DNA from: Ignavibacteria bacterium
GTDB lineage: Bacteria; Bacteroidota; Ignavibacteria; UBA10030; SZUA-254
DNA: 64,000 bases
Direction of reading: 5' to 3'
Assembly: GCA_016178595.1 (NCBI GenBank)
Contig: JACOSY010000014.1
Coordinates: 4,256-68,255, forward strand
Shown: in pieces, positions 6,893-45,338 of the stretch
Layout of the letters: every line of letters begins with the position of its first letter
Numbering within the stretch: position 1 is the first letter of the stretch
The notes under the pieces: generated by a model
Database searches by the model: none
The model's input: the letters and a program-made list of their open reading frames with translations, nothing else
What the model was told of the DNA's origin: nothing
Translations under genes and position numbers: made by a program

Positions 6893-7309
6893 TTATGAAA
6901 AGACTCTCAACGACGTTCCCGACAGTGTCGTATTGTACTTCTTCAATGGGCTGCTTGCCGGTCCATTGATGACGGTTCCATCGGTTGCGAAGTTGGAACC
7001 ATGCAGCGGACAATGAAAGCGATTGTTGGAGAGATCATACTGTACTGTGGTTCCCTGGTGCGTACATGCCATACTCACTGCGATATACGCCCCGCTTCCA
7101 GTACGTGCAACAATAACGCCGTTCTTGTAGAGATATCCACCGTTCGATTGCAGGGAACTATTGGCAGGATCCGACAAGTCGAGTGTAAAATCGACATTTG
7201 TTGGAGCATTGACCACTGCATCTTCCTGCTTGCATCCATCCATGCATGTGCCACAGACGATTGCTGCCGTTCCAATCCCGAGTATCGATAAGAATTCTTT
7301 TCTATCCAT
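6893..7309 (-). CDS. Rieske [2Fe-2S] domain protein with Tat/lipoprotein-like signal
   Basis: CTHQG...CPLHGS Rieske cluster-binding boxes. N-terminal RKEFL twin-arginine-like signal. Confidence 0.8.
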   Translation of the reverse strand: MDRKEFLSILGIGTAAIVCGTCMDGCKQEDAVVNAPTNVDFTLDLSDPANSSLQSNGGYLYKNGVIVARTGSGAYIAVSMACTHQGTTVQYDLSNNRFHCPLHGSNFATDGTVINGPASSPLKKYNTTLSGTSLRVFS

Positions 7310-9746: not shown

Positions 9747-9995
9747 CATTGTCTCGACGAATCTCTACCTTGAAACGTCTTCTAACGGTGGATATTGTGC
9801 GATCAGAATAACCGGAAGTTTTTACACAGCTAATTCTTAAAAAAACTGAACTTGTACGACGTTCGACGTCTCTGTCGTATACTCCCGACGATCATGCCAG
9901 GCAAGATACGTAGATCACTCAGGGATATTTTTCAGCGAGAGACGACAAATCAATAAGAAGCCGTTACCGGTTCACGGAACCAAGAGGTGCCGCCG

Positions 9996-10145
9996 ATGAT
10001 TGAACAGACAATTTCACACTACGAACTCACCCTGTGGTCCCTCTCTAAAATTAGAGAGGGACGAAATGGCTTCGCCAGCGCCTCCCCTTCTCTAAGTTTA
10101 GAGAAGGGGAATGAGGGGATGAGTTCCGACGAAAGGACAGCATGA
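9996..10145 (+). CDS. Putative leader mini-ORF (49 aa) mimicking the kinase N-terminus, ATGA-coupled to kinase 1
   Basis: RBS AAGAGG. Begins MIEQTISHYEL (compare kinase MIGQTISHYKIL). Runs through two perfect palindromes. Its TGA stop overlaps the kinase ATG (gcATGAtc). Confidence 0.3.
   Translation: MIEQTISHYELTLWSLSKIREGRNGFASASPSLSLEKGNEGMSSDERTA
10030..10141. repeat. Palindromic repeat element type B (two 10-12 bp perfect hairpins), copy 1
   Basis: tccctctctaaaat/tagagaggga and ccccttctcta..tagagaagggg. Homologous to copies at 25044-25200 and 17843-17934. Confidence 0.7.
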
Positions 10146-12835
10146 TCGGTCAGACTATCTCCCACTATAAGATCCTCGAGAAGCTCGGCGAGGGCGGAAT
10201 GGGCATCGTCTACAAAGCCGAGGACACCAAACTTGATCGCATGGTTGCACTCAAGTTCCTCCCATCTCATCTCGCTGCATCGGAACAGGATAAAGCTCGC
10301 TTCATTCAAGAAGCGAAAGCAGCGGCTGCTCTGAACCATCCCAATGTATGCTCCATCATTGACATCCAGGAACATGATGGACAGATGTTCATCGTGATGG
10401 AGTTTGTGGACGGACAAACACTGAGAGAGAAAAAGGAGGCGATCAGCTTCAAGCAAGCAATCGATATTGGTATCCAGATTGCAGACGGTTTGGCTGCCGC
10501 TCATGAAAAAGGCATTGTCCACAGGGACATCAAACCGGAAAACATTATGGTGCGTAGAGATGGGATTTGCCAGGTCATGGATTTTGGTCTGGCAAAACTC
10601 CGGAATGCTTCGAGCAAAATTAACCGGTTGACAAAGGAAGGTAGCACGGTTGGAACTGCCGGTTACATGTCACCCGAGCAGGTGCAGGGACAGGATACTG
10701 ATCATCGATCGGATATTTTTTCTCTCGGTGTGCTGCTGTATGAGTTATTTACAGGTCAGCTTCCCTTCAAAGGAGTTCATGAAACGGCACTCTTGTACGA
10801 GATTGTGAATGTCGATGCGCCACCGATGTCTGCCGTTAAGCCGGAGATTGATCCGAGTCTGGACGCAATTGTTCTCGAATGTTTGGCAAAAGAACCGAGT
10901 GAGCGGTACCAATCAGTGGCAGAAGTAGGAAAAGAACTGCGAAGATTCAAACGTGAATCAAGCCGCTCACGCGTGAGCCGCGTGACCTCAGTTCGTGATG
11001 TGTACAAAAGCTCAACCGGAAATGTTCAAACTCCTTCTCCACAATTTTCCATATCGGAACCTTTGCCCGAGAAAAAATCGCGTTTGATCATCTGGTTATC
11101 GACAACAATACTCTTTGTTCTTTCGACTGCAGCATTGGCTTTTTTGTATTTGCGGGAATCTTCAAAAGAAATAAGCCCTGTTCGCTTTACCCTCTCGCCT
11201 CCGGCGAAAGGCGTCTTTGAAGGTTATGCGCCGGTCATCTCGCCCAGCGGACAGCTGCTCGCATTTGTTGCGAGGGATTCTTCCGGCAAGTCGATGATAT
11301 GGATTCGTCCCCTTGCGTTTCTTCGTTCTGAACCTCTTCCGGGAACCGATAATGCGACGTATCCTTTTTGGTCTCCCGATAGCCGCTTTCTCGGCTTCTT
11401 CCAAGGTGGCAAGCTGAAGAAGATCGAGGTCAATGGCGGGCCGGCACAAACTGTTGCCGATGCACCGGATGGCAGAGGCGGTTCGTGGAGCAACTCAGGG
11501 ATAATTATTTTTGCGCCGAGTTATGGAACCGGACTTGTCCAGGTTCCGGAATCAGGCGGCAAGCTAATAGAATTGACAACTCTTGACACGTCTCGCAGAG
11601 AAGAAACTCATCGCTTTCCTAATTTTTTGCCTGACGGTCAGCATTTTACCTATCTCAGTCGCAGTACTGAAGACGAAAAAACAGGTGCCTATCTCGGTTC
11701 ACTCGACGGAAAAGTCCATACGTTGCTTCTTCCTAATAAGTCCAACGTCATGTTTGCTGCCCCTGGCTATTTGCTCTTCATACGGGAGAGATCGCTCATG
11801 GCACAACCATTCAATGCAGACAAGGGTGAATTCCGAGGCGACGCGTTTCCGATTGCTCAGGACGTGGGAAGCAACACGCGCGGCAACGGCTTTTTTTCGT
11901 CTTCGGCAAATGGTGTCCTTGTTTTTGTCGGCGGTGGAGGGGCGAGCGGTGAGAGACAATTTGCGTGGTATGATCGTACCGGAAAGCGTCTTGAGAAAGT
12001 GGGCTCGCCCGGAAATCTCGGTGATATGGCACTCTCTCCGGATGAAAAGCGCGTCGTGTTTCGCCGCATCGATCCACAAACCAGCAATCAAGATCTCTGG
12101 ATTCTTGATCTCCTGCGCCGCACCGAGTCCCGGTTTACATTTCGTCCTGCCACGGACGACGATCCGGTATGGTCTCCTGACGGCAGCAAAATTGTTTTTG
12201 ATTCGAACCCTGATGGAGTACCGAATCCGTTCGAAAAGATAGCCACAGGAGCAGGAACTGAACAGCTCCTCTGGAAATTTTCCAGCTCTACCATTCCATA
12301 CGATTGGTCTTCAGACGGACGCTACATTCTTCTAAGACAAGAAAATCGCGATACAAAGAGTGATTTATGGGCTTTACCTCTCTTCGGGGAAAAGAAACCC
12401 TTCCCTGTTCTCCAAACGGAAGCTTCAGAAGATGTTGGGCGCTTCTCTCCCGATGGACGGTGGATTGCCTATGAGTCGGATGAGTCCGGGAAATCTGAGG
12501 TGTACATTCAGGCATTTCCTGCAAGTCAGGGGAAATGGCAGGTGTCAGTCAATGGTGGTGGGGCGCCGCTGTGGAGCAAAGATGGTAAGGAAATCTTTTA
12601 CCTTGCACCGGATAAGAGATTGATGGTCGTCGATGTCAAGCTCCTGGGTACCTCGATCGAACAAGGAATTCCTAAACCACTCTTTGATACTTTTGTTGAT
12701 AATTATGATGCACCCAACCGTTATGCCGTTTCCAGAGATGGGAAGCGGTTTCTTGTCAATAACTCGACCGATAGTGACAGCTCAAAACCAATTATGGTAG
12801 TGTTGAACTGGACGGCGGAGGTAACGAAGAAATGA
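10142..12835 (+). CDS. Ser/Thr protein kinase with TM segment and C-terminal TolB-like (PD40/WD40-like) beta-propeller
   Basis: Hanks kinase motifs (GxGxxG, VALK, HRDIKPEN, DFG, SPE). Hydrophobic TM at ~aa 310. Repeated SPDG/PD40 motifs in the C-terminal half. Confidence 0.9.
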   Translation: MIGQTISHYKILEKLGEGGMGIVYKAEDTKLDRMVALKFLPSHLAASEQDKARFIQEAKAAAALNHPNVCSIIDIQEHDGQMFIVMEFVDGQTLREKKEAISFKQAIDIGIQIADGLAAAHEKGIVHRDIKPENIMVRRDGICQVMDFGLAKLRNASSKINRLTKEGSTVGTAGYMSPEQVQGQDTDHRSDIFSLGVLLYELFTGQLPFKGVHETALLYEIVNVDAPPMSAVKPEIDPSLDAIVLECLAKEPSERYQSVAEVGKELRRFKRESSRSRVSRVTSVRDVYKSSTGNVQTPSPQFSISEPLPEKKSRLIIWLSTTILFVLSTAALAFLYLRESSKEISPVRFTLSPPAKGVFEGYAPVISPSGQLLAFVARDSSGKSMIWIRPLAFLRSEPLPGTDNATYPFWSPDSRFLGFFQGGKLKKIEVNGGPAQTVADAPDGRGGSWSNSGIIIFAPSYGTGLVQVPESGGKLIELTTLDTSRREETHRFPNFLPDGQHFTYLSRSTEDEKTGAYLGSLDGKVHTLLLPNKSNVMFAAPGYLLFIRERSLMAQPFNADKGEFRGDAFPIAQDVGSNTRGNGFFSSSANGVLVFVGGGGASGERQFAWYDRTGKRLEKVGSPGNLGDMALSPDEKRVVFRRIDPQTSNQDLWILDLLRRTESRFTFRPATDDDPVWSPDGSKIVFDSNPDGVPNPFEKIATGAGTEQLLWKFSSSTIPYDWSSDGRYILLRQENRDTKSDLWALPLFGEKKPFPVLQTEASEDVGRFSPDGRWIAYESDESGKSEVYIQAFPASQGKWQVSVNGGGAPLWSKDGKEIFYLAPDKRLMVVDVKLLGTSIEQGIPKPLFDTFVDNYDAPNRYAVSRDGKRFLVNNSTDSDSSKPIMVVLNWTAEVTKK

Positions 12836-12936
12836 TCGGTCAAATCCCAAAACTGCCCGCGAGTGTTCTTCAACGAGTGGCTACAGTTTTGCGGATCCCG
12901 ACGTTTTTTGTCGGGACCCATGGGAGTTCTTTATGA
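12832..12936 (+). CDS. Linker mini-ORF (34 aa, MIGQIPKL...) ATGA-overlapping both kinase 1 stop and kinase 2 start
   Basis: Its ATG overlaps the kinase-1 TGA and its TGA overlaps the kinase-2 ATG. It encodes through the type A two-hairpin element. Confidence 0.3.
   Translation: MIGQIPKLPASVLQRVATVLRIPTFFVGTHGSSL
12846..12932. repeat. Two-hairpin spacer element type A, copy 1
   Basis: Stem caaaactg...cagttttg plus stem cccgac..gtcggg. Homologous (~75%) to 17748-17827 with compensatory changes in both stems. Confidence 0.6.
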
Positions 12937-15305
12937 TAGGACAAACAATATCCCACTATAAGATCCTCGAGAAGCTCGGCGAGGGCGGGATGGGCATCGT
13001 CTACAAAGCCCAGGATACCAAGCTTGATCGTATTGTCGCGCTAAAGTTTCTTCCTCACAATCTCACCGCGAACGAAGCGGAAAAATCCCGCTTTGTACAA
13101 GAGGCACGGGCTGCAGCCATCCTCAACCATCCGCACGTCTGTACTATTTATCGTATCGATGAATATAACGGTCAACAATTCATTGAGATGGAATATGTCG
13201 ATGGTGAAACCCTGCGGCGGAAAGTTCCGATCCAAAAGATTGAGGAAGCGTTACGCTGTGCGATTCAGATCGGAGAAGCGTTGCAAGAAGCCCACAGCAA
13301 AGGGATCGTTCACCGCGACATCAAGTGCGAAAACATTATGGTGAACTCGAAGAACCAGATTAAAGTAATGGACTTCGGTCTCGCGAAACTCAAAGGCTCT
13401 ATGAAACTGACACGGACCTCAAGCACGGTCGGTACGCTCGCCTACATGGCGCCGGAACAAATCCAAGGCGGAGAGGTGGATGCACGGTCCGATATCTTTT
13501 CGTATGGCGTTGTTATCTTTGAAATGTTCACAGGGCACACGCCGTTCCGTGGAGAGCACGAGGCGTCGATGATGTATTCCATAATGAACGAAGATCCTGA
13601 ACAACTCGTGAAGTACAGACCCGAACTATCGACCGATATCCAGCGCATTATTAACCGCGCATTGGAAAAAGATCCGGAAGATCGGTATCAACATGCCGAT
13701 GATATGGTGAGTGAATTGCGTCGTGTTCAAAAACAATCGGGGCGCGTAACACGAACAATGCAGATTGAGTCGTCTCCAACGATGCCGGCAACGACAAAGG
13801 ATCAACAAAGTGATCGCGAAAGCGTTCCGCGACTGAAATCAAAGATAAAACTTATTATCGGAATGATCTCGGTAGCGGTGATCATCGGTGTCGCTGCGCT
13901 GTATTTTCTGTTCAACAAGCAGAAGGCAATAGATTCCTTAGCTATTCTGCCATTTGAAGATGTTAGTGCAGCACCTGAACAAGAGTATCTTGCCGATGGC
14001 GTGACGGAAAGTATCATCAACAATCTTACGAAGATCTCTTCACTGAGAGTTGTTCCCCGCAGTACGGTCTTTCGTTTCAAAGGGAAGGATATGGATCTTC
14101 AGGATATCGGTTCAAAGCTCAAAGTCAATGCAATATTGACGGGAAGAATCACACACAGAGGTCAGTCGCTTGAAGTTCAAGTCGACCTGATCGATGTTGA
14201 TCGTCAATCGCAATTGTGGGGTAATCGTTATGTATCGACTGCAAGCGATTTGCTGACACTCCAGGAGAGCATTACAAAAGATGTTTCATCGAAACTCGGA
14301 ATTGGGTTTTCCTCGGAAACTCAAGAAAAACTTGCGAAGCGCTACACGGACAACACACAGGCGTATCAACTATACATGCAAGGGCGTTACTACTGGAATA
14401 AACGCACTGCGGCGGCACTCGAACGTGCCATTAGTTATTTCAATCAAGCCATTGCGCTCGACTCTACCTTTGCTCTTGCGTATAGTGGATTAGCCGATAG
14501 CTACATCATTCAGTCACAGTACGCCGGGATACCCACAGGCATTACTCTTCCATTGACGCAAAGGGCTGTACGGCGAGCGTTGGAACTGGACAATTCTCTT
14601 GCCGAGGCGCATACAACGCTTGCGTTCAGTTATTTTGAGCAGTGGAAGTATGAGGATGCGGAGCGCGAGTTCAAACAATCCATCGCGTTGAACCCCCGGT
14701 ATGCGACAACATATCACTGGTATGGCATTATGCTCGGCAGAACCGGCAATCCCGATCGCTATCTTGCCGTTATCAAGCAAGCACTAGAGATTGATCCGTA
14801 CTCCCCTATCATCACGCTCAATATGGGGGTGGCAAATTTGCTTTTGAAACAGTATGACGAAGCGTTGAGCTATTTCAAAAAGTGTGTGGAGATTGATCCC
14901 TCCTTTGCCGTTGGATACGGCTGGATGGGACTTACGTATGAACGAATGAAAAACTATCGTGACGCGCTATCACCGCTGCAAAAAGCCGTTGAGTTATCCG
15001 GTCGCTCGAGTGAATGCTTATCATATATCGGGTATTTTTATGGACGTGTCGGAAAAAGAGATGAGGCGCTCAAGCTTATCAAGGAAAATGAGGATCGCTA
15101 TCACGCAGGCACCGGCGCCGCCTATAGCATCGCTCGCATCTATGCAGGATTGGGTGAGAAGGAAAAGGTTCTGGAATTATTGGAGCAAGACTACCGCGAT
15201 CATAGTACATGGATTAATTCTCTCGGCAGCGATTACGTGTGGGATGATGTCCGCAGCGATCCCCGGTTTGTTGAGTTGACGAAGAAGGTAGGTTTGGTGA
15301 AATGA
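12933..15305 (+). CDS. Ser/Thr protein kinase with TM, juxtamembrane ectodomain module and C-terminal TPR repeats
   Basis: Kinase motifs as above. TM at ~aa 300. Conserved LAILPFEDVS...EYLADGVTESII module, then TPR-like repeats. Confidence 0.9.
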   Translation: MIGQTISHYKILEKLGEGGMGIVYKAQDTKLDRIVALKFLPHNLTANEAEKSRFVQEARAAAILNHPHVCTIYRIDEYNGQQFIEMEYVDGETLRRKVPIQKIEEALRCAIQIGEALQEAHSKGIVHRDIKCENIMVNSKNQIKVMDFGLAKLKGSMKLTRTSSTVGTLAYMAPEQIQGGEVDARSDIFSYGVVIFEMFTGHTPFRGEHEASMMYSIMNEDPEQLVKYRPELSTDIQRIINRALEKDPEDRYQHADDMVSELRRVQKQSGRVTRTMQIESSPTMPATTKDQQSDRESVPRLKSKIKLIIGMISVAVIIGVAALYFLFNKQKAIDSLAILPFEDVSAAPEQEYLADGVTESIINNLTKISSLRVVPRSTVFRFKGKDMDLQDIGSKLKVNAILTGRITHRGQSLEVQVDLIDVDRQSQLWGNRYVSTASDLLTLQESITKDVSSKLGIGFSSETQEKLAKRYTDNTQAYQLYMQGRYYWNKRTAAALERAISYFNQAIALDSTFALAYSGLADSYIIQSQYAGIPTGITLPLTQRAVRRALELDNSLAEAHTTLAFSYFEQWKYEDAEREFKQSIALNPRYATTYHWYGIMLGRTGNPDRYLAVIKQALEIDPYSPIITLNMGVANLLLKQYDEALSYFKKCVEIDPSFAVGYGWMGLTYERMKNYRDALSPLQKAVELSGRSSECLSYIGYFYGRVGKRDEALKLIKENEDRYHAGTGAAYSIARIYAGLGEKEKVLELLEQDYRDHSTWINSLGSDYVWDDVRSDPRFVELTKKVGLVK

Positions 15306-15396
15306 TCGGACAGATAATTTTTAAATTGACTCATTGTCCCATTGATTCATTTATCCAATGTGTTCAATGAGCAAATGAGAAAATGAAAACATTATC

Positions 15397-17736
15397 ATGA
15401 TCGGTCAAACGATATCACATTACAAGATTCTCGAAAAGCTCGGCGAAGGCGGGATGGGCATCGTGTACAAAGCCCACGATGAAAAACTTGATCGCATGGT
15501 TGCCCTGAAGTTTCTCCCTGCGACTGTCGTCTCATCGCAGGACGAGGCTGTGCGTTTCGAGCGGGAGGCAAAGGCAATCTCCGCTCTCAATCATCCCGGC
15601 ATTGCTACTATCCATGACATTGATGAAACCGACGGGAAGAAATTTCTCGTTTTGGAGTACATCTCCGGGGGCACGCTGAAATCAAAACTCAAAAAGCTTA
15701 AGTCTGATGATAAAGAGTTTACGGTTGCGGAGGTGATCGACTACGGCATCCAGATGGCTGAAGGACTGGGCCACGCCCACAGGCATCAGATCGTCCATCG
15801 CGATGTCAAGAGCGACAACGTGATGCTGACCGAAGAAGGCAAAGTGAAAATCACCGACTTCGGTCTGGCGAAACTCCGGAGCACAACGCATCTGACAAGG
15901 ACAGGCAGTACGATCGGCACACTTGCGTACATGGCACCTGAGCAATTGCGGGGCGAGGAAATCGATCATCGTGCCGACTTGTTTTCACTCGGTGTTGTCC
16001 TCTACGAAATGGCAACTTCGCGTCTTCCCTTCCGGGGCGAGCATGAAGCGGCGTTGACGTATTCGATTGCGAATGAGGATCCGGCTCCTGTGAAGTCACT
16101 TCGGCCGAATCTGCCGCCGGTGCTGGAACAGGTCATCACGAAATGTCTGCAGAAGGACAGAGCACTTCGCTACCAGAGCGCAGATGAGATTGTTGCTGAC
16201 TTGCGCACATTGCAGCACGAAACGACAGGCACGGTGAAAACCGTCGTCGTGAAGCAACAATCGAAACTTCAATGGATGATTGCGTCGGCGCTTGTAGTGG
16301 TTGTCGCTGTCGCACTCTATCTCCTCATGCCATCATCACATCCCACATCGACAAATAGTAAAACGATCGCCGTTCTGCCGTTTGTCAATATGAGCGGCGA
16401 CCCGCAGGACGAGTATTTCAGTGATGGAATGACGGAAGACATTCTGACACAACTTTCCAAGATCGCCGATTTGAAAGTTATCTCCCGCACCTCGGTGATG
16501 AAATATAAACATACAGAGAAATCAATACGGGAGATCGGGAATGATCTCAATGCCGGCGTAGTGCTTGAAGGGAGCGTGCGACGAGCTGAAAATCAAATAC
16601 GCATCACTGCGCAGTTGATCGACGCCAGCACTGATGAGCACCTCTGGGCAGAAAGCTACGACAAGGAGTTCAAACAGATTTTCGCGGTCCAGAGTGATGT
16701 CGCACAACGGGTTGCAGATGCGCTCAAGATTCAATTGATGGGTGACGAAAAGCGATCGGTCGAAAAAGAGGCAACGCAGAACCTCGAAGCCTATAATCTC
16801 TATCTTAAAGGACGCTACTTCCTGGGCAAGAGGACCGAAGACGGGCTGAAGAAGGCGATAGAATTTTTCCAACAAGCGGTCGAGAAAGATACTGCGTACG
16901 CAATTGCTTATGCCGGACTCGCAGATTCGTATACCCTGCTTGCGCTGCTGGAATTTCTTCCTCCTCGAGAGGCATTTCCGAAAGCAAAAGCTGCTGCCGA
17001 AAAAGCAATTATGATTGATCCATCGATCGCAGAGGCGCACGCTTCATTAGGGGTCGTGAGATTTCAGTACGATTGGGATTGGCCCGCGGCTGAACAAGAA
17101 TATACTCGCGCAATTGCACTGAAGAAAAATTATGGAACAGCACACCACTACTATGCCGACTTTCTGAAAGGTATGGGTCGCTTCGATCAAGCACTCTCCG
17201 AAATTAAGAAAGCCCAGGAGCTCGATCCACTCTCGCTGGCAATTAACACCGGCCTCGGTCACGTCCTCTATTTGTCCCGGCACTACGATCAAGCGATCGA
17301 GCAATATCGACGAACCCTGGAAATGGATCCCAATTTCCTGCAGGCAAGGCTCTGGTTTGGCAGACCCTATCTGCAAAAGAAGATGTACAAAGAAGCGATT
17401 TCTGAATTACAGGCGGCTGTACAACTGTCTGGCAACAGTACAATCGCATGTGCCATGCTCGGACACGCGTACGCTGCTGCGGGAAACAAAAAAGAAGCTT
17501 TGAAAATGCTCGATGAGTTGACAAAAAGATCCGAGCATCAGTATGTTCCCTCATATTGGATTGGAATGATCTACATTGGCTTCGGCGATAAGGACAAAGC
17601 CTTTGCCTGGCTTGATAAGGCATACGATGAGCGATCTGCCTGGTTGGCGTGGCTCAAAGTGGAGCCGAGATTTGATACTTTGCGCTCAGACCAGCGCTTC
17701 ACGACACTTTTAAAGAAGATGGGACTGGAACAATGA
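15397..17736 (+). CDS. Ser/Thr protein kinase with TM, juxtamembrane module and C-terminal TPR repeats (paralog)
   Basis: Same architecture as 12933-15305. IAVLPFVNMSGDPQDEYFSDGMTEDIL module plus TPR repeats. Confidence 0.9.
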   Translation: MIGQTISHYKILEKLGEGGMGIVYKAHDEKLDRMVALKFLPATVVSSQDEAVRFEREAKAISALNHPGIATIHDIDETDGKKFLVLEYISGGTLKSKLKKLKSDDKEFTVAEVIDYGIQMAEGLGHAHRHQIVHRDVKSDNVMLTEEGKVKITDFGLAKLRSTTHLTRTGSTIGTLAYMAPEQLRGEEIDHRADLFSLGVVLYEMATSRLPFRGEHEAALTYSIANEDPAPVKSLRPNLPPVLEQVITKCLQKDRALRYQSADEIVADLRTLQHETTGTVKTVVVKQQSKLQWMIASALVVVVAVALYLLMPSSHPTSTNSKTIAVLPFVNMSGDPQDEYFSDGMTEDILTQLSKIADLKVISRTSVMKYKHTEKSIREIGNDLNAGVVLEGSVRRAENQIRITAQLIDASTDEHLWAESYDKEFKQIFAVQSDVAQRVADALKIQLMGDEKRSVEKEATQNLEAYNLYLKGRYFLGKRTEDGLKKAIEFFQQAVEKDTAYAIAYAGLADSYTLLALLEFLPPREAFPKAKAAAEKAIMIDPSIAEAHASLGVVRFQYDWDWPAAEQEYTRAIALKKNYGTAHHYYADFLKGMGRFDQALSEIKKAQELDPLSLAINTGLGHVLYLSRHYDQAIEQYRRTLEMDPNFLQARLWFGRPYLQKKMYKEAISELQAAVQLSGNSTIACAMLGHAYAAAGNKKEALKMLDELTKRSEHQYVPSYWIGMIYIGFGDKDKAFAWLDKAYDERSAWLAWLKVEPRFDTLRSDQRFTTLLKKMGLEQ

Positions 17737-17747
17737 TCGGATAAATT

Positions 17748-17827
17748 CCAAAACTCCCCACGAACGAAGTGAGTGGATGGAGTTTTGAGAATCCCGCTGT
17801 TCTTTAGCGGGACCTAATGGAGACTTG
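17748..17827. repeat. Two-hairpin spacer element type A, copy 2
   Basis: caaaactcc...ggagttttg and tcccgc..gcggga stems. Flanked by ATGATCGG kinase-start-like motifs. Confidence 0.6.
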
Positions 17828-17842
17828 ATGATCGGACAAATA

Positions 17843-17934
17843 ATTTCACACATACCCTCACCCTATAATCCCTCTCCCAAATTGGGAGAGGGATGTCACG
17901 AAGTGACAGGGAGAGGGTCAACAAGGGCAAGGCT
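17843..17934. repeat. Palindromic repeat element type B variant
   Basis: tccctctcccaaat/tgggagaggga perfect palindrome plus tgtcac-gaa-gtgaca. Preceded by ATGATCGGACAAATAATTTCACAC. Confidence 0.55.
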
Positions 17935-18236
17935 ATGATTGGGACGACCGTTTCTCACTACAAGATACTTGAGAAGCTGGATGAGGCGCCATGGGCGTAG
18001 TCTACAAAGCCGAAAACACCAAGCTCGATTGGATTGTTGCCATCAAGTTTTTTTCTAAGCGACTTTCCGCCCACGGAGAGAAGCATGAGTTGCTTGATTT
18101 TGACGCTCATGGCCGGGTGACCCTCACTGATGTGACTGCAGATGGCAGTCGGTTCTTGATTTCCAACTCTCCTGCCGGACTGGTTCAACCGATCACGATG
18201 GTGACAAATTGGGACAAGGAGTTGAAGAAGAAATGA
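17935..18236 (+). pseudogene. Ser/Thr kinase paralog remnant: internally deleted and frameshifted
   Basis: MIGTTVSHYKILEKL then a -1 frameshift versus paralogs (gagggcgg to gagg-cgcc). The kinase N-terminus (~35 aa) is joined directly to a TolB-type C-terminal tail (QPITMVTNWDKELKKK, compare the kinase-1 end PIMVVLNWTAEVTKK). Confidence 0.7.
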
Positions 18237-18246
18237 GGAACGTGCT

Positions 18247-18594
18247 ATGATGCATTTCGGACAAACATTGTCAACGATCGTCGAACAGTCGGAACGACTA
18301 AAGGAAGTCTACAAGACCAGCTTGCATCCCGGCGATTGTCTCGTCGTCAAGACGTGCAATTCGGTCTACACTATTCGGGCATTGGAGGACGGTTCTTTTA
18401 CTGCTTCAGGCGGTTGGTTCGATCGCAAGGGCAAGTCCCCGATGAAAGTACGGATCAATGGATGTACGTGGGGTGGAAGTGCCATCAAAATCAATATCGC
18501 GGCGGCAGCGGGATTATGTTTGGAGTTTGGCAACAGGGTCAGGACGAGCCCCATCCGGCATATTGTGATATTTCCAAACGGAAGCATTAATTGA
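18247..18594 (+). CDS. Hypothetical protein (115 aa) upstream of Y-family polymerase
   Basis: ORF with plausible composition. No recognised family. Confidence 0.4.
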   Translation: MMHFGQTLSTIVEQSERLKEVYKTSLHPGDCLVVKTCNSVYTIRALEDGSFTASGGWFDRKGKSPMKVRINGCTWGGSAIKINIAAAAGLCLEFGNRVRTSPIRHIVIFPNGSIN

Positions 18595-20092: not shown

Positions 20093-20452
20093 ATGAGGCT
20101 CTACGTAGGTAACTTGTCGCGCGACGTCAACGAAGACGATTTGCGCGAAACCTTCCAGGCATTCGGCAAGGTCGACGAGGTAGTCATTGTGAAGGATAAA
20201 TTCAACAGCGTTCCCAAGGGATTTGGCTTCGTCGAAATGCCCGACCAAACAGAAGCGCAGAAAGCCATCGACGAGCTGAGCGGAAAAGAATTGAAAGGCC
20301 GCTCGATCGATGTCAATGAAGCGAGGCCCAAGACCGATCGTCCGCGTGGCGGCGGCGGCGGTGGTGGTGGTTGGGGTGGTGGACGATCAGGCGGCGGAGG
20401 TCGTGGTGGACGATCAGGCGGCGGAGGTGGAGGTGGTGGTCGGCGCTGGTAA
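20093..20452 (+). CDS. Glycine-rich RNA-binding protein (single RRM)
   Basis: Start refined to MRLYVGNL (RNP2). RNP1 KGFGFVEM. C-terminal GGGGGG/RGG tail. Confidence 0.85.
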   Translation: MRLYVGNLSRDVNEDDLRETFQAFGKVDEVVIVKDKFNSVPKGFGFVEMPDQTEAQKAIDELSGKELKGRSIDVNEARPKTDRPRGGGGGGGGWGGGRSGGGGRGGRSGGGGGGGGRRW

Positions 20453-24377: not shown

Positions 24378-25043
24378 GTTTGTTCCCTCCTTTAAGATGA
24401 ATGCCTTATGTGTATGCTGAACTTTTCCCCCGGAGCGCCTTCAATGAGATACAGTCAGGCGGTGGACGAATCACCAATGGTGATGAGAGAGAAATAATTG
24501 GTATCAGGTTCATGGCCGAGATCCGGAAAGTATGCGAGAGTAGACTCGCAAGATATATCTACGGTGAAAACGTTTCAGAGATGGGTGCGGAAAGAACCCG
24601 ATGAGGAGATAGCATAATACATTTGCGCACTGACTGACTCGTGGTCATTCGCTTCCTCAAAGCGAGGATATTTCCCTCGTCGCTGTGAGTCTTATGTCTC
24701 GGAGGGAATGATGACTTCCGATCCCGCGGCGCTGTTGCGGAACCAAACCAAGCGTGCCCCTATCCGTTCTAATGAATTGATCGGAATAAGTGGAATATAC
24801 ATTTGTACTCTTCGAAAGTCAAGTTCCTGGCGTATGAGCCATCGACTCATAAAAAAGGTAGCCGAACGGAGTCCGGAAAAGAGTTGTTGCATCATATATA
24901 TATATATGCAGCCATCTCAGTTTGTACTGAAACACGTTCCTTGACTTTCCTTCTGCTCTATAGTGAATGAGATATTAACGATGAAGGAACACCTGGCCAA
25001 ACGTATGTGGGCGTGAAGAAGATGTTATTGATGAAATAGTAAC

Positions 25044-25200
25044 CGAACTCACCTCGACGAGTCGAGTCGTCGACCTGTAGTCTCCCAAAGGGATCCCTTT
25101 GGGACCTCTCTAAAATTAGAGAGGGACGCGATCGCGCACCCCTTCTCTACTTGTAGAGAAGGGGTGGGGGATGAGTCCGATGAGAGCAAAGGCAAAGCCC
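25044..25200. repeat. Palindromic repeat element type B, copy 3 (extra hairpin), flanked by ~20-bp direct repeats
   Basis: tcccaaaggga/tccctttggga, cctctctaaaattagagagg and ccccttctctacttgtagagaagggg. Flanking direct repeats gatgttattgatgaaatag (25021-25039) and gatgttgttgatgaagtg (25215-25232). Confidence 0.65.
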
Positions 25201-25464
25201 AATCAGTGAACGAGATGTTGTTGATGAAGTGACGTTCCTCTCGCAACGGTCTTTGTGGCGGGTTCTGAAATAGAGATCGAAGCACAAAAGCCGTTCCGAA
25301 GAATCGAAACGGCTTTTTTAATAAACTACCCCGCCGCAGGCGGAGGGGTGATTGAAAAGAAGGGGATACGCTGGAGGAAGCAATGAGAATCGGTTTCTCA
25401 TGCTCCTCCGACCTTCGTCGGAATGGATGATGAGCCGCGGAGAAGACCGGCGACGAACCGGTCT

Positions 25465-40616: not shown

Positions 40617-43600
40617 TTGAAGATAGGGATGTGGCGAAAGATGTGTCATAACAGAATATACTTTTGGCTTCTGGTTGCTGTGTTTGCCCCTTCGTTGCTT
40701 ATTGGGCAAACTCCCCGCCACATCAACGTACCTCACGAAAGTATTTCAGAAGCTCCGACGAACGCTCTGCGTATCCCCTTTCGTTATCGATTGCTTGGCC
40801 TGCCATTTGAGCGGACTGATTCTGTATCGACTCCAATACATCTCCGGAATGATTCACTGCCTCAGGAGAATGGGATACGCTCTTTCATGCATGGCAACGC
40901 TCTACCGAATCGCTTCCACCAACAGGATGTTACTCGCGGCAAGGGAACACAGTCGATGCAGGCAGATTCATCGATGACGTCGTCGAATGAATTGACCGTC
41001 GCGTGGGTTCAGCATTACGCTTCTAACCTCGTCTCCTCCTCGGACATTCCGAACGCACTTGCGACCGATCGTTTCAGCAACGTCATTGTCACGGGAGTGA
41101 GCACGGCAACGTTTTCCGATGGAGACTACCTGACCATCAAGTATGATCCGCAAGGGAATCAACTCTGGACTGCCCGTGCAGGAAACCCCTCCGGCGGATA
41201 CAGCGTAGCGACTGCGCTCGCAGTTGACCCACAAGGAAATATCTATGTTACGGGGTTCACCAAGAATCCTAACGTGAATTTCGACATCCTCACCATCAAG
41301 TACGACACCGCTGGACACGAACAATGGCGAGCAACCTATAACGGAGTGGCAGACAGCGATGATATTCCAATAGCAATGGCAGTCGATGCAAGTGGAAGTG
41401 TTTACGTTGCCGGCTACTCATACGACAAAGATTTTGATTATGATTATCTCGTTCTCAAATATACGCCAAATGGGATCGAGGAATGGTCCGATCGCTATAA
41501 CGGGATCGGTAATGGAATTGATATTCCGACAGGGATCGCCGTCGGCAATGGCAACGTTACAGTCACGGGAAATGCAGATGGTGGATCGACCGGTTCAGAT
41601 GTGGTAACCGTGCGATATACTACGGCTGGAGTAAGACAGTGGGTGGCTATATATGCGACAGCAGGGAAAGACCGTGCAAATGCTCTCGTCGTAGACGCAT
41701 TGGGAAACACCTACGTCGTGGGATCCGTGCAGGCCGACGCTTCTCCGACAGATTATCTTCTGGTGAAGTATACTCCTGAAGGTATTGAAGATTGGGTCAC
41801 TACATACAACGGGCCAACCAATCGCAATGACGTTGCCACGGGATTTGCTCTTGGACGAAATGGTGAAGGCTACGTCACTGGATTCAGTGAAGCGGGAAAT
41901 GGATACCCTGACGATGTCACGGAGAGGATTGATCTTCAGACTGGCGCAGCACAGTGGATTCAGCGTTACGATAATCCCTACCATGGCGCTGACATTCCTA
42001 TCGGCATCATAGTTTCTTCGGAGGGTTTGATCTACGTCTCCGGATATTCCAAGTATAACGTTGCCGCAGACTATGACTTTCTCACGCTGAAATACGATAC
42101 GGCGGGGAATCGGTTCTCGGAAGTGCGCTACAACGGTGTGGGAAAAGACGATATTGCTACGTCAATTGCGGCCGATTCGACCGGGAATATCTTTGTCGCT
42201 GGAGCGAGTAACGCTCAAGGCTTGGACTATGCGGTCGTAAAGTATGAAGCAAACTTGTATGGCGGCTGGTTTTCTACTTTTTCCGACGGCGCTGGTACTA
42301 GTGATGCTTCATCAGTTGCAACTGACAAAAGCGGAAACGTCTACGTTGCCGGGCAATCCGGCAATAACTTTATCACGATAAAATATAATCCGAGAGGCGA
42401 GAGGCAATGGGTTTCGCAGCTCCCGCAGATTCGGGGCGCTGCAACGGCGTTGAAGCTCGATTCCATTGGTCAACCATGCGTTGCCGGCTACGCTATCGAC
42501 ACTATGACGGGGTACCATGACTTCATCACGGCAAAACTCGACACGAACGGATCACTCCTGTGGAAAGACATTTACCGCGGCCCGTATGGTCGTAATGACG
42601 ACATAGTTGCGATGGCGATTGATGGGCAAGGGAATGTCTATGTGACCGGCCGGAGTTTCAGCACGGTAACCGGCAACGATTTTGTCACGATTAAATATGG
42701 CCCTGATGGTCAGACATTATGGATCGATATTTTTAATGGCGAGCTTGACCTTGATGATGAGCCTGCCGCGATTGTCGTTGATCCCATGCAGAATGTTATT
42801 GTAGTCGGAACCAGCATCCGCTCGCTTACATCCTCTGATTTTACAACGATCAAGTACAACCCCCAAGGGTATCGGCAGTGGATTGAATATGCCGACGGGA
42901 CAGGAAATGGCGTGGATCGTGCGAAAGCCGTATGCGTCGATAGCCAAGGAAACGTGATTGTTACTGGTCGAAGTTTGGGAATAGGATCAGGACCGGACTA
43001 CCTGACCGTCAAATACTCTCCATCGGGTGCTGAGAGGTGGCGAGCACGATTAACCAGAGGCCTCCAAACAGTCGATGAGCCGACTGCGATTGTCTCAGAT
43101 AGAATGGGGAGGATATACGTCACTGGCTTGAGCTACGAAAACTATACGAGCATCGACTACGGCACGGTCCAGTACGGTGCATCCGGTACGGAATTATGGC
43201 GATCATTCTATAACGGTCCTGCGAACGGTGTAGATTACCCGGTAGGACTTGTGCTGGATGCGAGCGGGAATATCTACGTGACAGGAACAAGCTTGGCTTC
43301 CGGATCGTCGACCGATATCGCGACAGTCAAGTATTCGAATGCCGGAAAAGAGCTTTTAGTTGATCGCTTCAATGGATTTGCCAGCTTAAACGACGCAGCA
43401 CATGCTATGACAATTGATACCGCGGGGAACGTTTACATCGCAGGAAATTCTGCAGATCAGGATGGTCGTTTGCAGGCATTGTTGATTAAGTTCGGTCGCC
43501 CGATTCAAGAGTCATGGCCCGTCCGCTATGATGGCCCCGGAGTGAGCATTGATCGAGTAAGCAATCTCGCTGTGGATTCTTCGGGTAATGTCTTTATCTC

Positions 43601-45113
43601 CGGACAAAGCACTCATAGCAACGCATCATCGTATGTCTGGACGATCAAATATAATCCACAGGGATCCGTGCTCTGGAATTCCTTGTCGACCGGTTCGGAC
43701 GAATGGCTGGGATCGCCGCGTGCCATCGCAGTCGACAAGAGTGGGTCGGCAATTGTCACCGGACTTTCCTATGCCTCGTTTAACGCGAGTTCCTATCGCA
43801 CGGTCAAGTACGATCCAAATGGAGCGCAAGAGTGGTCGCAATTATATGGCGGCAGCAGCTACAACTTCGCGGTAGCAAATGTCGTTGACGACAGTTCGTC
43901 GGTTTACGTCACTGGATATAGTGACAACGCTACAACGCATTATGATTTTGCAACATTGAAATATTCTTCGGATGGAATACAGAAGTTGGTTTCACGTTTC
44001 AATGGTCCGAACAATAACCCTGACGATCTCGTCTATGCGATGAAGCTTGATGCCCAAAAAAATGTCTATCTAACGGGACTTACATTTGACGCTACTACAG
44101 GAGGGGATTACGCCACCGTGAAATATGCACCGGATGGAACGCAATCCTGGGCATCGTACTATAACGGACCTGTCCATAGTGATGATCGTGCCCGTGACCT
44201 CAGCGTCGATTCACATGGCAATGTGTATGTTACGGGATGGAGTGTCGGTCCGGACTCGAGCTATGACTATTTGACTATCAAATATGATTCTGTGGGCGCA
44301 GAACAATGGATAGCACGTTATCACGGCCAACAGAGCGAAGAAGACCAGGCAACATCGATTGTCCTTGATAGCATCGGAAATGTCTACGTAACCGGATACA
44401 GCACCCCACCGCCATACATCAGCAGTGATATTATCACCGTGAAGTACGACTCGCTAGGTGTAGAACAGTGGGAACGTCGGTATGATGGTGAAGCGCACGA
44501 AGTTGACATTGCGAACGCGATGTTGATTGATCGCTCCGGATACATCTGCATTGCCGGTCAAAGCACGGCATCCGACGGTGTTCTTGAATCTTTAGTGCTT
44601 ATGTATGACGCAGAAGGTGTACTACGCTGGGTTGGTCGGTACCGGCTGCCGGGAAGTCTCACAAACGAAGCCAGGAAAATGGTTCTCGATGGACGTGGCA
44701 ATCTTTTTGTAACAGGAACATCAGCCGGAGTTGCATGGAGTGTGAGCACGACGATCAAATACAGTCACTCGATATCGAGTGCCGTCAGTAGCGATGCTTC
44801 GGTTGGGATGCATGACTTTGCGTTGCTTCGTAATTATCCGAATCCATTCAATCCGTCCGCAACGATTGAAGTTACTCTTGCTGGATTTGCCTTCCTGACC
44901 CTCAAAGTTTACAATATGCTCGGCCAAGAGATTGCGACATTGGCATCGCATGAGCGAGTGAGTGGCGGAGTGCATTACATAAAATTCGAAGGGATGAACC
45001 TGCCTTCAGGTGTCTATCTTTGCCGGATGAGCGCAGAGCCTATGTATTCTTCCGGCAATAAGGTCGACGGGCGTATGTTTACTGCAACAACTAAGATGCT
45101 CCTGCTTCGTTAA
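40617..45113 (+). CDS. Giant secreted SBBP beta-propeller-repeat protein with T9SS C-terminal domain
   Basis: More than 20 copies of a ~50-aa repeat (D.A.A.A.D..GN.YVTG.S....DY.T.KY...G). C-terminal CTD NYPNPFNPS...KVYNMLGQE...GVYLCRM. Confidence 0.85.
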   Translation: MKIGMWRKMCHNRIYFWLLVAVFAPSLLIGQTPRHINVPHESISEAPTNALRIPFRYRLLGLPFERTDSVSTPIHLRNDSLPQENGIRSFMHGNALPNRFHQQDVTRGKGTQSMQADSSMTSSNELTVAWVQHYASNLVSSSDIPNALATDRFSNVIVTGVSTATFSDGDYLTIKYDPQGNQLWTARAGNPSGGYSVATALAVDPQGNIYVTGFTKNPNVNFDILTIKYDTAGHEQWRATYNGVADSDDIPIAMAVDASGSVYVAGYSYDKDFDYDYLVLKYTPNGIEEWSDRYNGIGNGIDIPTGIAVGNGNVTVTGNADGGSTGSDVVTVRYTTAGVRQWVAIYATAGKDRANALVVDALGNTYVVGSVQADASPTDYLLVKYTPEGIEDWVTTYNGPTNRNDVATGFALGRNGEGYVTGFSEAGNGYPDDVTERIDLQTGAAQWIQRYDNPYHGADIPIGIIVSSEGLIYVSGYSKYNVAADYDFLTLKYDTAGNRFSEVRYNGVGKDDIATSIAADSTGNIFVAGASNAQGLDYAVVKYEANLYGGWFSTFSDGAGTSDASSVATDKSGNVYVAGQSGNNFITIKYNPRGERQWVSQLPQIRGAATALKLDSIGQPCVAGYAIDTMTGYHDFITAKLDTNGSLLWKDIYRGPYGRNDDIVAMAIDGQGNVYVTGRSFSTVTGNDFVTIKYGPDGQTLWIDIFNGELDLDDEPAAIVVDPMQNVIVVGTSIRSLTSSDFTTIKYNPQGYRQWIEYADGTGNGVDRAKAVCVDSQGNVIVTGRSLGIGSGPDYLTVKYSPSGAERWRARLTRGLQTVDEPTAIVSDRMGRIYVTGLSYENYTSIDYGTVQYGASGTELWRSFYNGPANGVDYPVGLVLDASGNIYVTGTSLASGSSTDIATVKYSNAGKELLVDRFNGFASLNDAAHAMTIDTAGNVYIAGNSADQDGRLQALLIKFGRPIQESWPVRYDGPGVSIDRVSNLAVDSSGNVFISGQSTHSNASSYVWTIKYNPQGSVLWNSLSTGSDEWLGSPRAIAVDKSGSAIVTGLSYASFNASSYRTVKYDPNGAQEWSQLYGGSSYNFAVANVVDDSSSVYVTGYSDNATTHYDFATLKYSSDGIQKLVSRFNGPNNNPDDLVYAMKLDAQKNVYLTGLTFDATTGGDYATVKYAPDGTQSWASYYNGPVHSDDRARDLSVDSHGNVYVTGWSVGPDSSYDYLTIKYDSVGAEQWIARYHGQQSEEDQATSIVLDSIGNVYVTGYSTPPPYISSDIITVKYDSLGVEQWERRYDGEAHEVDIANAMLIDRSGYICIAGQSTASDGVLESLVLMYDAEGVLRWVGRYRLPGSLTNEARKMVLDGRGNLFVTGTSAGVAWSVSTTIKYSHSISSAVSSDASVGMHDFALLRNYPNPFNPSATIEVTLAGFAFLTLKVYNMLGQEIATLASHERVSGGVHYIKFEGMNLPSGVYLCRMSAEPMYSSGNKVDGRMFTATTKMLLLR

Positions 45114-45338
45114 GTGTCTGAACTATCCGATTCGTGCCTTCCCTAAGAGTTCCATTAGATTGTATTAAGAAAGCGGAGTAGTTTCTTCATTGATCCTTGG
45201 AGTTGATGAGATTGCATTTCCTGGGAGGAAAAACTCTTGATTGTCGCTCATATCTTGCGTATCTTTACTTCTATCAGAACTTCAGACAAGACTGTTTGGC
45301 AGAAACAACTATCTTCAACTCATTATGATGGATTGTCC

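Follow-up and report, generated by a model that had tools for sequence, protein, structure and literature searches.

The genome of an Ignavibacteria bacterium (GenBank assembly GCA_016178595.1) contains a tandem array of Ser/Thr kinase genes in which the original gene starts have been displaced by inserted leader modules. The array lies in a stretch of 64,000 nucleotides (nt) of contig JACOSY010000014.1 (positions 4,256 to 68,255), hereafter called the window, and consists of three intact genes, K1, K2 and K3, followed by the gutted K4, all head to tail. A truncated kinase start is present at every junction (J0 to J3) of the array. These copies are the old, original starts, and leader modules of three kinds have displaced them, namely a structured element that we call E (J1 and J3a), a REP-like element (J0 and J3b) and an AT-rich leader (J2). 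Short open reading frames (mini-ORFs) run from the old starts into these modules, and comparison of many related junctions shows that those crossing E are selected to remain open.

Copied kinase starts in the array

The products of K1, K2 and K3 are Hanks-type Ser/Thr protein kinases (PF00069, E = 1.5e-54 to 2.6e-54), with the glycine-rich loop GEGGMG at residues 16-21. In K4, a stop is reached 21 codons after the start at 17935, and a second frame (17991-18236) combines a kinase N-lobe fragment with a K1-like C-terminus (...NWDKELKKK); K4 is a K1-type gene minus its middle. ORF and Pfam analyses agree on this point with a preliminary description of this DNA, which had reported three full kinases and one decayed copy, and the start-like strings that it quoted are all found where it placed them.

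Start-like copies are located at 9996, 12832, 15302, 17733 and 17828. With at most one mismatch allowed, ATGATCGGNCARA occurs seven times in the 64 kb, always on the + strand and always within the array; shuffled sequences contained 1.2 +/- 1.1 occurrences, and seven were reached in 0/100 shuffles. The distances between each start-like copy and the next start (146, 101, 95, 95 and 107 nt) are 2 mod 3 in all five cases. Same-strand stop/start overlaps of the form ATGA are found at 10142, 12832, 12933, 15302, 15397, 17733 and 17935.

Direct overlaps in related loci

A search of species-representative genomes with K2 returned 41 loci, mostly from Ignavibacteria-like metagenome-assembled genomes; a protein identical to K2 was not on record in public assemblies. 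In the closest relative (locus L005), the K2-like gene ends in ...ATGAAATGAtcgatcagacaatttccc, and an ATGA holds both its stop and the first codon of the K3 orthologue, with no spacer between them. The K2-like stop and the K3-like start overlap as GTGA in L002 and L003, and direct overlaps of two full kinases are common, as in L002 (3322), L031 and L033. Therefore, the copies at 12832, 15302 and 17733 are the original starts, and it is the window that carries insertions. The insertions lie 13-19 nt behind these starts.

Two related loci harbour comparable insertions. At the J1 orthologue of L001, a gene for an 898-residue PD40 kinase is followed by ATGA, an 84-nt old-start fragment, E and then a gene for a 791-residue TPR kinase. 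Behind a TPR-type kinase, L101 displays the same state as J1 of the window: the old start measures 13 nt, the spacing is 101 nt and the frame is open.

Conservation of the mini-ORF frame

Genome and metagenome contigs provided 49 unique old-start/E/kinase junctions, in which we located the old starts by alignment to the real start. The junction with E lies 13, 52, 60, 76, 84, 90, 102, 108 or 115 nt into the old ORF, which does not agree with the earlier proposal of ATGATCGGNCARA as the target, and the spacing between the two starts varies from 101 to 278 nt. In spite of 23 distinct pairs of junction position and spacing, the start-to-start distance is 2 mod 3 in 49/49 junctions. The old start codon is kept throughout (46 ATG, 2 GTG and 1 TTG). 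Between the two starts, the 49 junctions contain 3 stops in the frame of the old start versus 103 and 97 in the other two frames. The mini-ORF ends on the TGA of the real-start ATGA in 44 junctions; of the remaining five, two run 3 nt further, two fall 5-8 nt short and one is broken. Among the window and genome copies, J3a alone has a broken E-type mini-ORF, and it lies upstream of the dead K4.

E is read in two frames, the junction position being 0 or 1 mod 3, and within L001 the frame in which the same E nucleotides are read changes from copy to copy. It is therefore the open frame that is conserved, and not the peptide. These comparisons show that E-type mini-ORFs are under selection to stay open, consistent with a relay that would maintain translational coupling. 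An anti-polarity role, in which Rho would be kept off the transcript, fits the E-junction data equally well.

Structure and occurrence of element E

E is ~90-130 nt long, with no matching ORF product. It begins with a ~50-nt hairpin starting (G)TCCCRAAA (hairpin 1), followed by a second hairpin, CCCGNN...NNCGGGA, and by a spacer with a GGGAG(G) tract 7-10 nt ahead of the ATG. Using a profile of hairpin 1, we found 106 copies in 102 sequences of the fetched loci. In the kinase context, a kinase 5' fragment is always upstream of E and the full start always downstream. The 5' edge of the element (G|TCCCRAAA) is invariant, whereas its position in the target varies; the base preceding E is mostly G, after W-W.

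In 50 distinct copies, the 17 pairs of hairpin 1 are formed at 97.5%, with changes on both sides in 15 of them; no shuffle reached the observed scores, and slid registers pair at <=47%. A tandem G.A/A.G internal loop hardly varies between copies. There are more G.T than A.C pairs (18 vs 6) and, therefore, one strand folds, as RNA or single-stranded DNA. The two E copies of the window are ~70% identical and their stem differences are compensatory; aligning J1 with J3a reveals gaps of 5 nt and 1 nt, that is, indels that compensate each other. Two other readings of the structure were discarded. A sigma-54 -24/-12 promoter had been considered for TGGC-N7-TTGC at J1, the GC of which is not kept in J3a or other copies and whose bases are stem partners, and a K-turn for the tandem G.A loop, from which the 3-nt bulge sits four pairs off.

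No Rfam match was obtained for E or the other spacers (whole window at gathering score; 9800-18400 at E <= 10), a scan of viral contigs yielded no E, and a literature search retrieved no description of E or of this arrangement. Tandem chains of two to four E units form 20 clusters, versus 61 singletons, and several relay ORFs run consecutively in such chains. Up to four E units, each behind a kinase-start fragment, precede a single kinase in L065, L066, L072, L079/L093 and L087, with a period of ~140-170 nt.

Like MITEs (miniature transposable elements with inverted repeats), E is small, non-coding and present in many dispersed copies. It lacks the features that define them: only two internal hairpins and no terminal inverted repeats were found, and there is no target-site duplication of fixed length. 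The duplicated segment measures 10-115 nt, starts in every case from the gene boundary and, in L001, is a chimera of the kind expected from homologous crossover, which also led us to reject a classical target-site duplication. The J0 REP-like element does have terminal inverted repeats, of 10-12 nt; no parent insertion sequence was found.

E copies at tRNA genes

Loci retrieved by the E pattern alone revealed a second context. About a dozen unique copies adjoin tRNA genes (Val-TAC, Glu-CTC, Arg-TCT, Arg-ACG, Arg-CCG, Pro-GGG and Gly-CCC), in both orientations. Their topology is partial tRNA copy-E-spacer-intact tRNA, with junctions that map to the anticodon loop, the D loop or the 3' end; the partial-copy flank and the restored gene were seen in L047, L062, L074, L084, L089, L100 and L042. 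Beyond kinase starts and tRNA genes, the only contexts of the E pattern were chance matches in GC-rich coding DNA. Kinase starts and tRNA genes are both conserved multi-copy sequences, which fits spread by homology.

No integrase or transposase is encoded beside the tRNA-linked copies in L052 and L100, whose neighbours correspond to HNH, Mrr, RecQ and DUF6577 (Pfam), and no RAYT (IS200/IS605-like TnpA) gene was present in the neighbourhoods examined. With no cognate integrase found inside it and an insert of 100-150 nt, E does not qualify as an integrative element. One copy has a distinct layout: in L089 (3255-3450), E interrupts a partial tRNA-Arg(TCT) in the anticodon loop and the tRNA resumes right after it (...CCTTCTAAG / E / CTGTAGGTTCC...), resembling a simple insertion, unlike the usual duplicated-target topology.

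Recombination signature of the displaced starts

Old and new starts differ by 13 synonymous and 6 non-synonymous codon changes in the window, and by 292 and 133, respectively, in 37 related pairs. The mostly synonymous differences described earlier are thus confirmed, and the excess implies that old and new starts diverged as functional starts of different paralogues. In L001, the new starts that follow E are 83-100% identical among paralogues over nt 1-42 (95-100% among three of them), and past nt 42 identity falls to ~45-79%. Conversely, by eye, the first 42 nt of the L001 old starts are locus-specific and their tails are near-identical, including a 21-nt hairpin that landed there. Together, the synonymous bias and the L001 signature uphold the view that the copies derive from 5' ends of coding paralogues and not from target-site duplication.

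From these sequences, the transferred unit would comprise the old-start tail, E, the spacer and the new-start head, with a crossover within the conserved 60 nt. Such a unit is expected both from Campbell-type entry of a permuted unit and from gene conversion from an occupied locus. E appears to spread among paralogues by homologous recombination; alternatively, the foot of hairpin 1 might be the site of action of an enzyme.

Tiny palindromes (CCCCGCCAYAAAGACGGCGGG, TCCGCCTCTGGCGGA, GCGCCNAAGGCGC) were observed inside copies that are non-functional, old kinase starts as well as partial tRNAs (L001 2944-2964, 5828-5848 and 13712-13732; L085 ~7000-7075; L062 ~670-685; L089; L100). The 21-nt palindrome insert in L001 keeps the mini-ORF frame.

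Junctions of the window

At J0 (Table 1), nt 9996-10022 correspond to the old K1 start, 146 nt (2 mod 3) ahead of the K1 ATG, and no stop occurs in the mini-ORF frame versus four in each other frame. The REP-like element of J0 has a predicted fold of -60.6 kcal/mol (z = -6.0) and is separated from K1 by a purine-rich spacer (10128-10141). It corresponds to repeat families D11 and D17, a second copy of which lies at 25095-25164. At J1, the old start is reduced to 13 nt (12832-12844). The AT-rich leader of J2 has no significant fold (z = -1.2) and can be aligned with kinase-upstream leaders in L008 and L005; it contains a 5-codon ORF, MKTLS (15383-15400), whose stop overlaps the K3 ATG. At J3, ~80 nt separate the MIG-stop ORF (17733-17744) from the next one (17828-17938), of which nt 17828-17851 are the start supplied by E copy 2. 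The L005 copies of the J3b hairpin both occupy the same position in a kinase start as it does.

The preliminary description had every junction bridged by ORFs. A bridge formed by one continuous ORF is present only at J1 (12832-12936); J2 is split into 15302-15370 and 15383-15400 with a 12-nt gap, and the first ORF of J3 is only MIG-stop. Three mini-ORFs, and not four, begin with MIGQI.

Promoter and terminator consensus scans gave no enrichment over shuffles, and no terminator was found between the kinases. The sigma-70-type scan returned one weak site (12908-12937, 9/12), not above shuffles, with a consensus that may not be that of this lineage.

Table 1. Kinase genes, mini-ORFs and leader modules of the array, in window coordinates
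Feature	Position	Strand	Description
Relay mini-ORF J0	9996-10145	+	MIEQTISHY..., 49 residues from ATG; stop is the TGA of the K1-start ATGA
J0 REP/MITE-like nested-hairpin element	10023-10127	+	Terminal inverted repeats GAACTCACCC...GGGGATGAGTTC; two internal palindromes
K1	10142-12835	+	897 residues; Ser/Thr kinase (Pkinase), transmembrane segment, PD40 beta-propeller (Pfam)
Relay mini-ORF J1	12832-12936	+	MIGQIPKL..., 34 residues; ATG overlaps K1 stop and stop overlaps K2 ATG (both ATGA)
Element E copy 1 (J1)	12845-12932	+	Hairpin 1 12845-12895; hairpin 2 12896-12916; spacer with GGGAG 12917-12932
K2	12933-15305	+	790 residues; Pkinase, TolB_N, TPR (Pfam)
Mini-ORF J2a	15302-15370	+	MIGQIIFKL..., 22 residues; ATG overlaps K2 stop; old K3 start at nt 15302-15320
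J2 AT-rich CATTGA-type leader	15321-15396	+	Placed after nt 19 of the old K3 start
K3	15397-17736	+	779 residues; Pkinase, TolB_N-like, TPR, architecture as K2 (Pfam)
Old start at J3a	17733-17745	+	Overlaps K3 stop; now MIG-stop (ATGATCGGATAA), broken relay ORF
Element E copy 2 (J3a)	17746-17827	+	Hairpin 1 17746-17791; hairpin 2 17792-17812; spacer with TGGAG
Mini-ORF J3b	17828-17938	+	MIGQIISH..., 36 residues; stop overlaps K4 ATG
J3b REP-like nested hairpin	17854-17918	+	z = -5.1; family shared with two L005 copies
K4, dead K1-type kinase	17935-18236	+	5' ~150 nt joined to 3' ~120 nt, frameshifted; repeat family D4

Proposed mechanism and alternative explanations

We propose that the kinases of the ancestral array were translationally coupled through overlapping [A/G]TGA stop/start motifs, and that leader modules (E, REP-like, AT-rich) were later placed 13-27 nt inside the 5' ends of K1, K2, K3 and K4. 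Each module would have brought a Shine-Dalgarno-like purine tract and a fresh conserved kinase start, leaving the kinase ORF whole. The first nucleotides of the old ORF would have remained upstream, overlapping the stop of the preceding kinase and opening a mini-ORF through the insert, which would end on the TGA of the new-start ATGA where the downstream gene is alive. Ribosomes finishing one kinase, or initiating at the old site, would cross the insert to the rebuilt start; handed from K1 to the mini-ORF and on to K2, they would melt the hairpins of the insert, and coupling would be kept, polarity avoided, or both. As a unit made of the tail of the old start, E, the spacer and the head of the new start, E would enter genes that share the 60-nt kinase start by homologous recombination, and tRNA genes in the same way. 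We consider this account, taken as a whole, to be probably correct. It joins two readings of the preliminary description, which are both supported by sequence, in combination. The first, scars of recurrent insertion or recombination, is borne out by the direct overlaps in relatives and by the recurrence of the inserted repeat modules. The second, a coupled chain along the whole array, agrees with the frame kept at E-type junctions, with their near-absence of stops, and does not extend to the split J2 or the dead J3a.

Several observations weigh against the proposed mechanism. Homology alone explains neither the contrast between the invariant 5' edge of E and its varying target junction nor the junctions with only 10-16 nt of duplicated tRNA, and the expected founder state, an E without an upstream target fragment, was seen in none of the E copies. 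J2 is not one continuous ORF, J2a ending 27 nt short of K3. Two REP-type junctions of L005 are 0 mod 3 with in-frame stops; it is therefore only for the E type that conservation of the relay is demonstrated. The Shine-Dalgarno tract is predicted to be modestly occluded, with an unpaired probability of 0.32 versus 0.47 for kinases without E, which favours the relay weakly. Finally, we infer from sequence that the mini-ORFs are co-transcribed and translated and that their translation is needed.

The mini-ORFs might instead be inert, untranslated scars of insertion or recombination, with trivial ATGA overlaps since kinase starts read ATGA. Indeed, the TGA of ATGATCGG inevitably closes any +1-frame ORF, the window has interruptions at J2 and J3a, and the non-E junctions of L005 and L022 are out of frame or closed. 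However, inert scars would not account for a single frame in all 49 E junctions despite their 23 length combinations, for 3 stops in the relay frame against ~100 in each other frame, for the compensating 5-nt and 1-nt gaps between J1 and J3a or for the constant retention of the old start codon, and we regard this explanation as very improbable. We give even less credence to the idea that the truncated starts are what is left of whole kinases whose bodies were deleted. K4 shows that large internal deletions occur in the array, and truncated and real starts differ mostly synonymously. Nevertheless, three features led us to reject deletion of an intervening kinase: E and the truncated start are directly contiguous in every copy, without a 3' residue of a deleted gene; many genomes have the junction at the same positions; and the K2 stop of L005 overlaps K3, the very gene that comes after the spacer in the window. 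Also rejected were an assembly artefact, the same architecture and frame conservation being found in >40 independent contigs from different projects, and frameshifting or bypass towards an N-terminally extended kinase, the mini-ORF being in the -1 frame and ending at the start codon, so that the N-terminus would be duplicated.

Other explanations concern the nature of E. A dedicated cis-regulatory leader RNA that binds a protein or a ligand, with the mini-ORF as the leader peptide of an attenuation-like device and no mobility, would be consistent with the strong covariation and conserved tandem G.A internal loop of hairpin 1, with the bias towards G.T pairs pointing to one folded strand, with the partly paired Shine-Dalgarno tract and with the constant position of E ahead of kinases. 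It is hard to reconcile with E copies beside at least seven kinds of tRNA gene, in both orientations and with partial tRNA duplications, with chains of 2-4 units, with the orthologous junction devoid of E in relatives or with the lack of an Rfam match, and we find it unlikely; a leader-RNA role and a mobile-insert role are not mutually exclusive. Somewhat less unlikely, although still doubtful in our view, is that E represents the end of a transposon-like or integrase-driven element, mobile through an HUH/rolling-circle enzyme or tyrosine recombinase supplied in trans, which would cut at the 5' foot of hairpin 1 and produce the partial duplications as att-like repeats. The invariant 5' edge at variable target positions, the mostly G preceding base after W-W, the tRNA junctions in the anticodon loop, D loop and 3' end, as in tRNA-targeting integrative elements, and duplications of just 10-16 nt, below the needs of RecA, all speak for an enzyme. 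Against it are the lack of an adjoining transposase or integrase in the loci examined, the absence of a fixed target motif and of a target duplication of constant length, the crossover signature of L001, which falls within the homologous 60 nt, and the scan of viral contigs, which found no E.

Returning to spread by homologous recombination, we tentatively raise the possibility that E is a selfish element of a new type, without a dedicated transposase. As a permuted target copy (target tail-E-target head), it would colonize conserved multi-copy sequences, for instance tRNA genes or the ultra-conserved first 60 nt of a large kinase family, through homologous recombination and would persist in protein-coding genes because the host has no choice but to translate through it in a disposable relay ORF. 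If true, E would subject whole kinase arrays to a coupling step that is tunable and gated by structure.

Other features of the window

A third REP-like nested-hairpin copy (25049-25199) is located in an unrelated intergenic region, with no kinase. It is flanked by a ~27-nt imperfect direct repeat (GTGAAGAAGATGTTATTGATGAAATAG / GTGAACGAGATGTTGTTGATGAAGTGA, region 25013-25232); both repeats read ...MLLMK-stop, with synonymous-type differences. A hairpin resembling a terminator lies past this copy (~25290-25320).

Right after K4, the segment 18247-19897 contains a 115-residue ORF without Pfam match and a 418-residue ORF that by appearance might encode a Y-family (DinB/ImpB-type) DNA polymerase. 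A putative small RRM-type RNA-binding protein with a glycine/arginine-rich tail, recognized by reading the sequence, is encoded at 20101-20452 and might be a binder of structured leaders. Two very large ORFs of 1498 and 2372 residues (40617-52355) harbour internal repeat families (D1, D3, D5-D7) and C-terminal motifs (...YPNPFNPS...) typical of type IX secretion sorting domains, in keeping with DNA of Ignavibacteria/Bacteroidota-like origin.

Significance and comparison with known systems

The array illustrates how structured repeats can enter, time after time, a gene family whose 5' end is highly conserved while its genes are kept: the repeat supplies a new start, and the orphaned old start is reused as the entry to a relay ORF. 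The single frame of the 49 junctions, with 3 stops against ~100, is among the cleanest sequence-only hints of bacterial upstream mini-ORFs selected purely for translation. In a phylum that has received little study, the system lends itself to tests of termination-reinitiation and anti-polarity. Kinase starts and tRNA genes are linked by an undescribed hairpin element with strong covariation. Annotation pipelines will label such mini-ORFs hypothetical proteins or mis-start the kinases.

Termination-reinitiation coupling at ATGA/NUGA overlaps is established, including coupling of upstream ORFs to ORFs in Mycobacterium tuberculosis (PMC11260477; bioRxiv 10.1101/2022.06.01.494293). The array shares with these cases the 4-nt overlap, the open upstream frame and a short upstream ORF that can feed the main one. 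It differs in that the upstream ORF consists of a duplicated gene-family start plus a repeat element and relays between two long genes that were once directly coupled, with conservation of the frame and not of the peptide.

Neisseria REP2 and Borrelia IR-A/IR-B are dispersed repeats of ~120-180 nt without classical terminal inverted repeats (PMC3184786). They likewise deliver stem-loops, a ribosome-binding site plus an ATG to gene fronts, and E has the corresponding traits: two stem-loops, a GGGAG(G) tract 7-10 nt ahead of the ATG, and a start carried along by the element. The likeness is one of layout, and E is set apart by the target fragment that is always upstream, by its tRNA sites and by tandem amplification. 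Rickettsia palindromic elements, BOX/RUP and ERIC are palindromic repeats in transcribed or translated sequence that survive only with an open frame (PMC3184786). They become part of the host protein, whereas E would be translated only within a disposable relay ORF, with the host protein restored further downstream.

In tRNA-targeting integrative elements, the att site copies part of the tRNA gene, so that the gene is restored upon integration and a partial copy remains. E resembles them in its order of partial target, insert and intact target and in its junctions at the anticodon loop or 3' end, and is unlike them in its insert of ~100-150 nt, its many targets, the duplication of both 5' and 3' parts and its presence in both orientations. 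The arrangement described here thus joins two known kinds of phenomenon, gene-front repeats and translational coupling, with an undescribed structured element, E.

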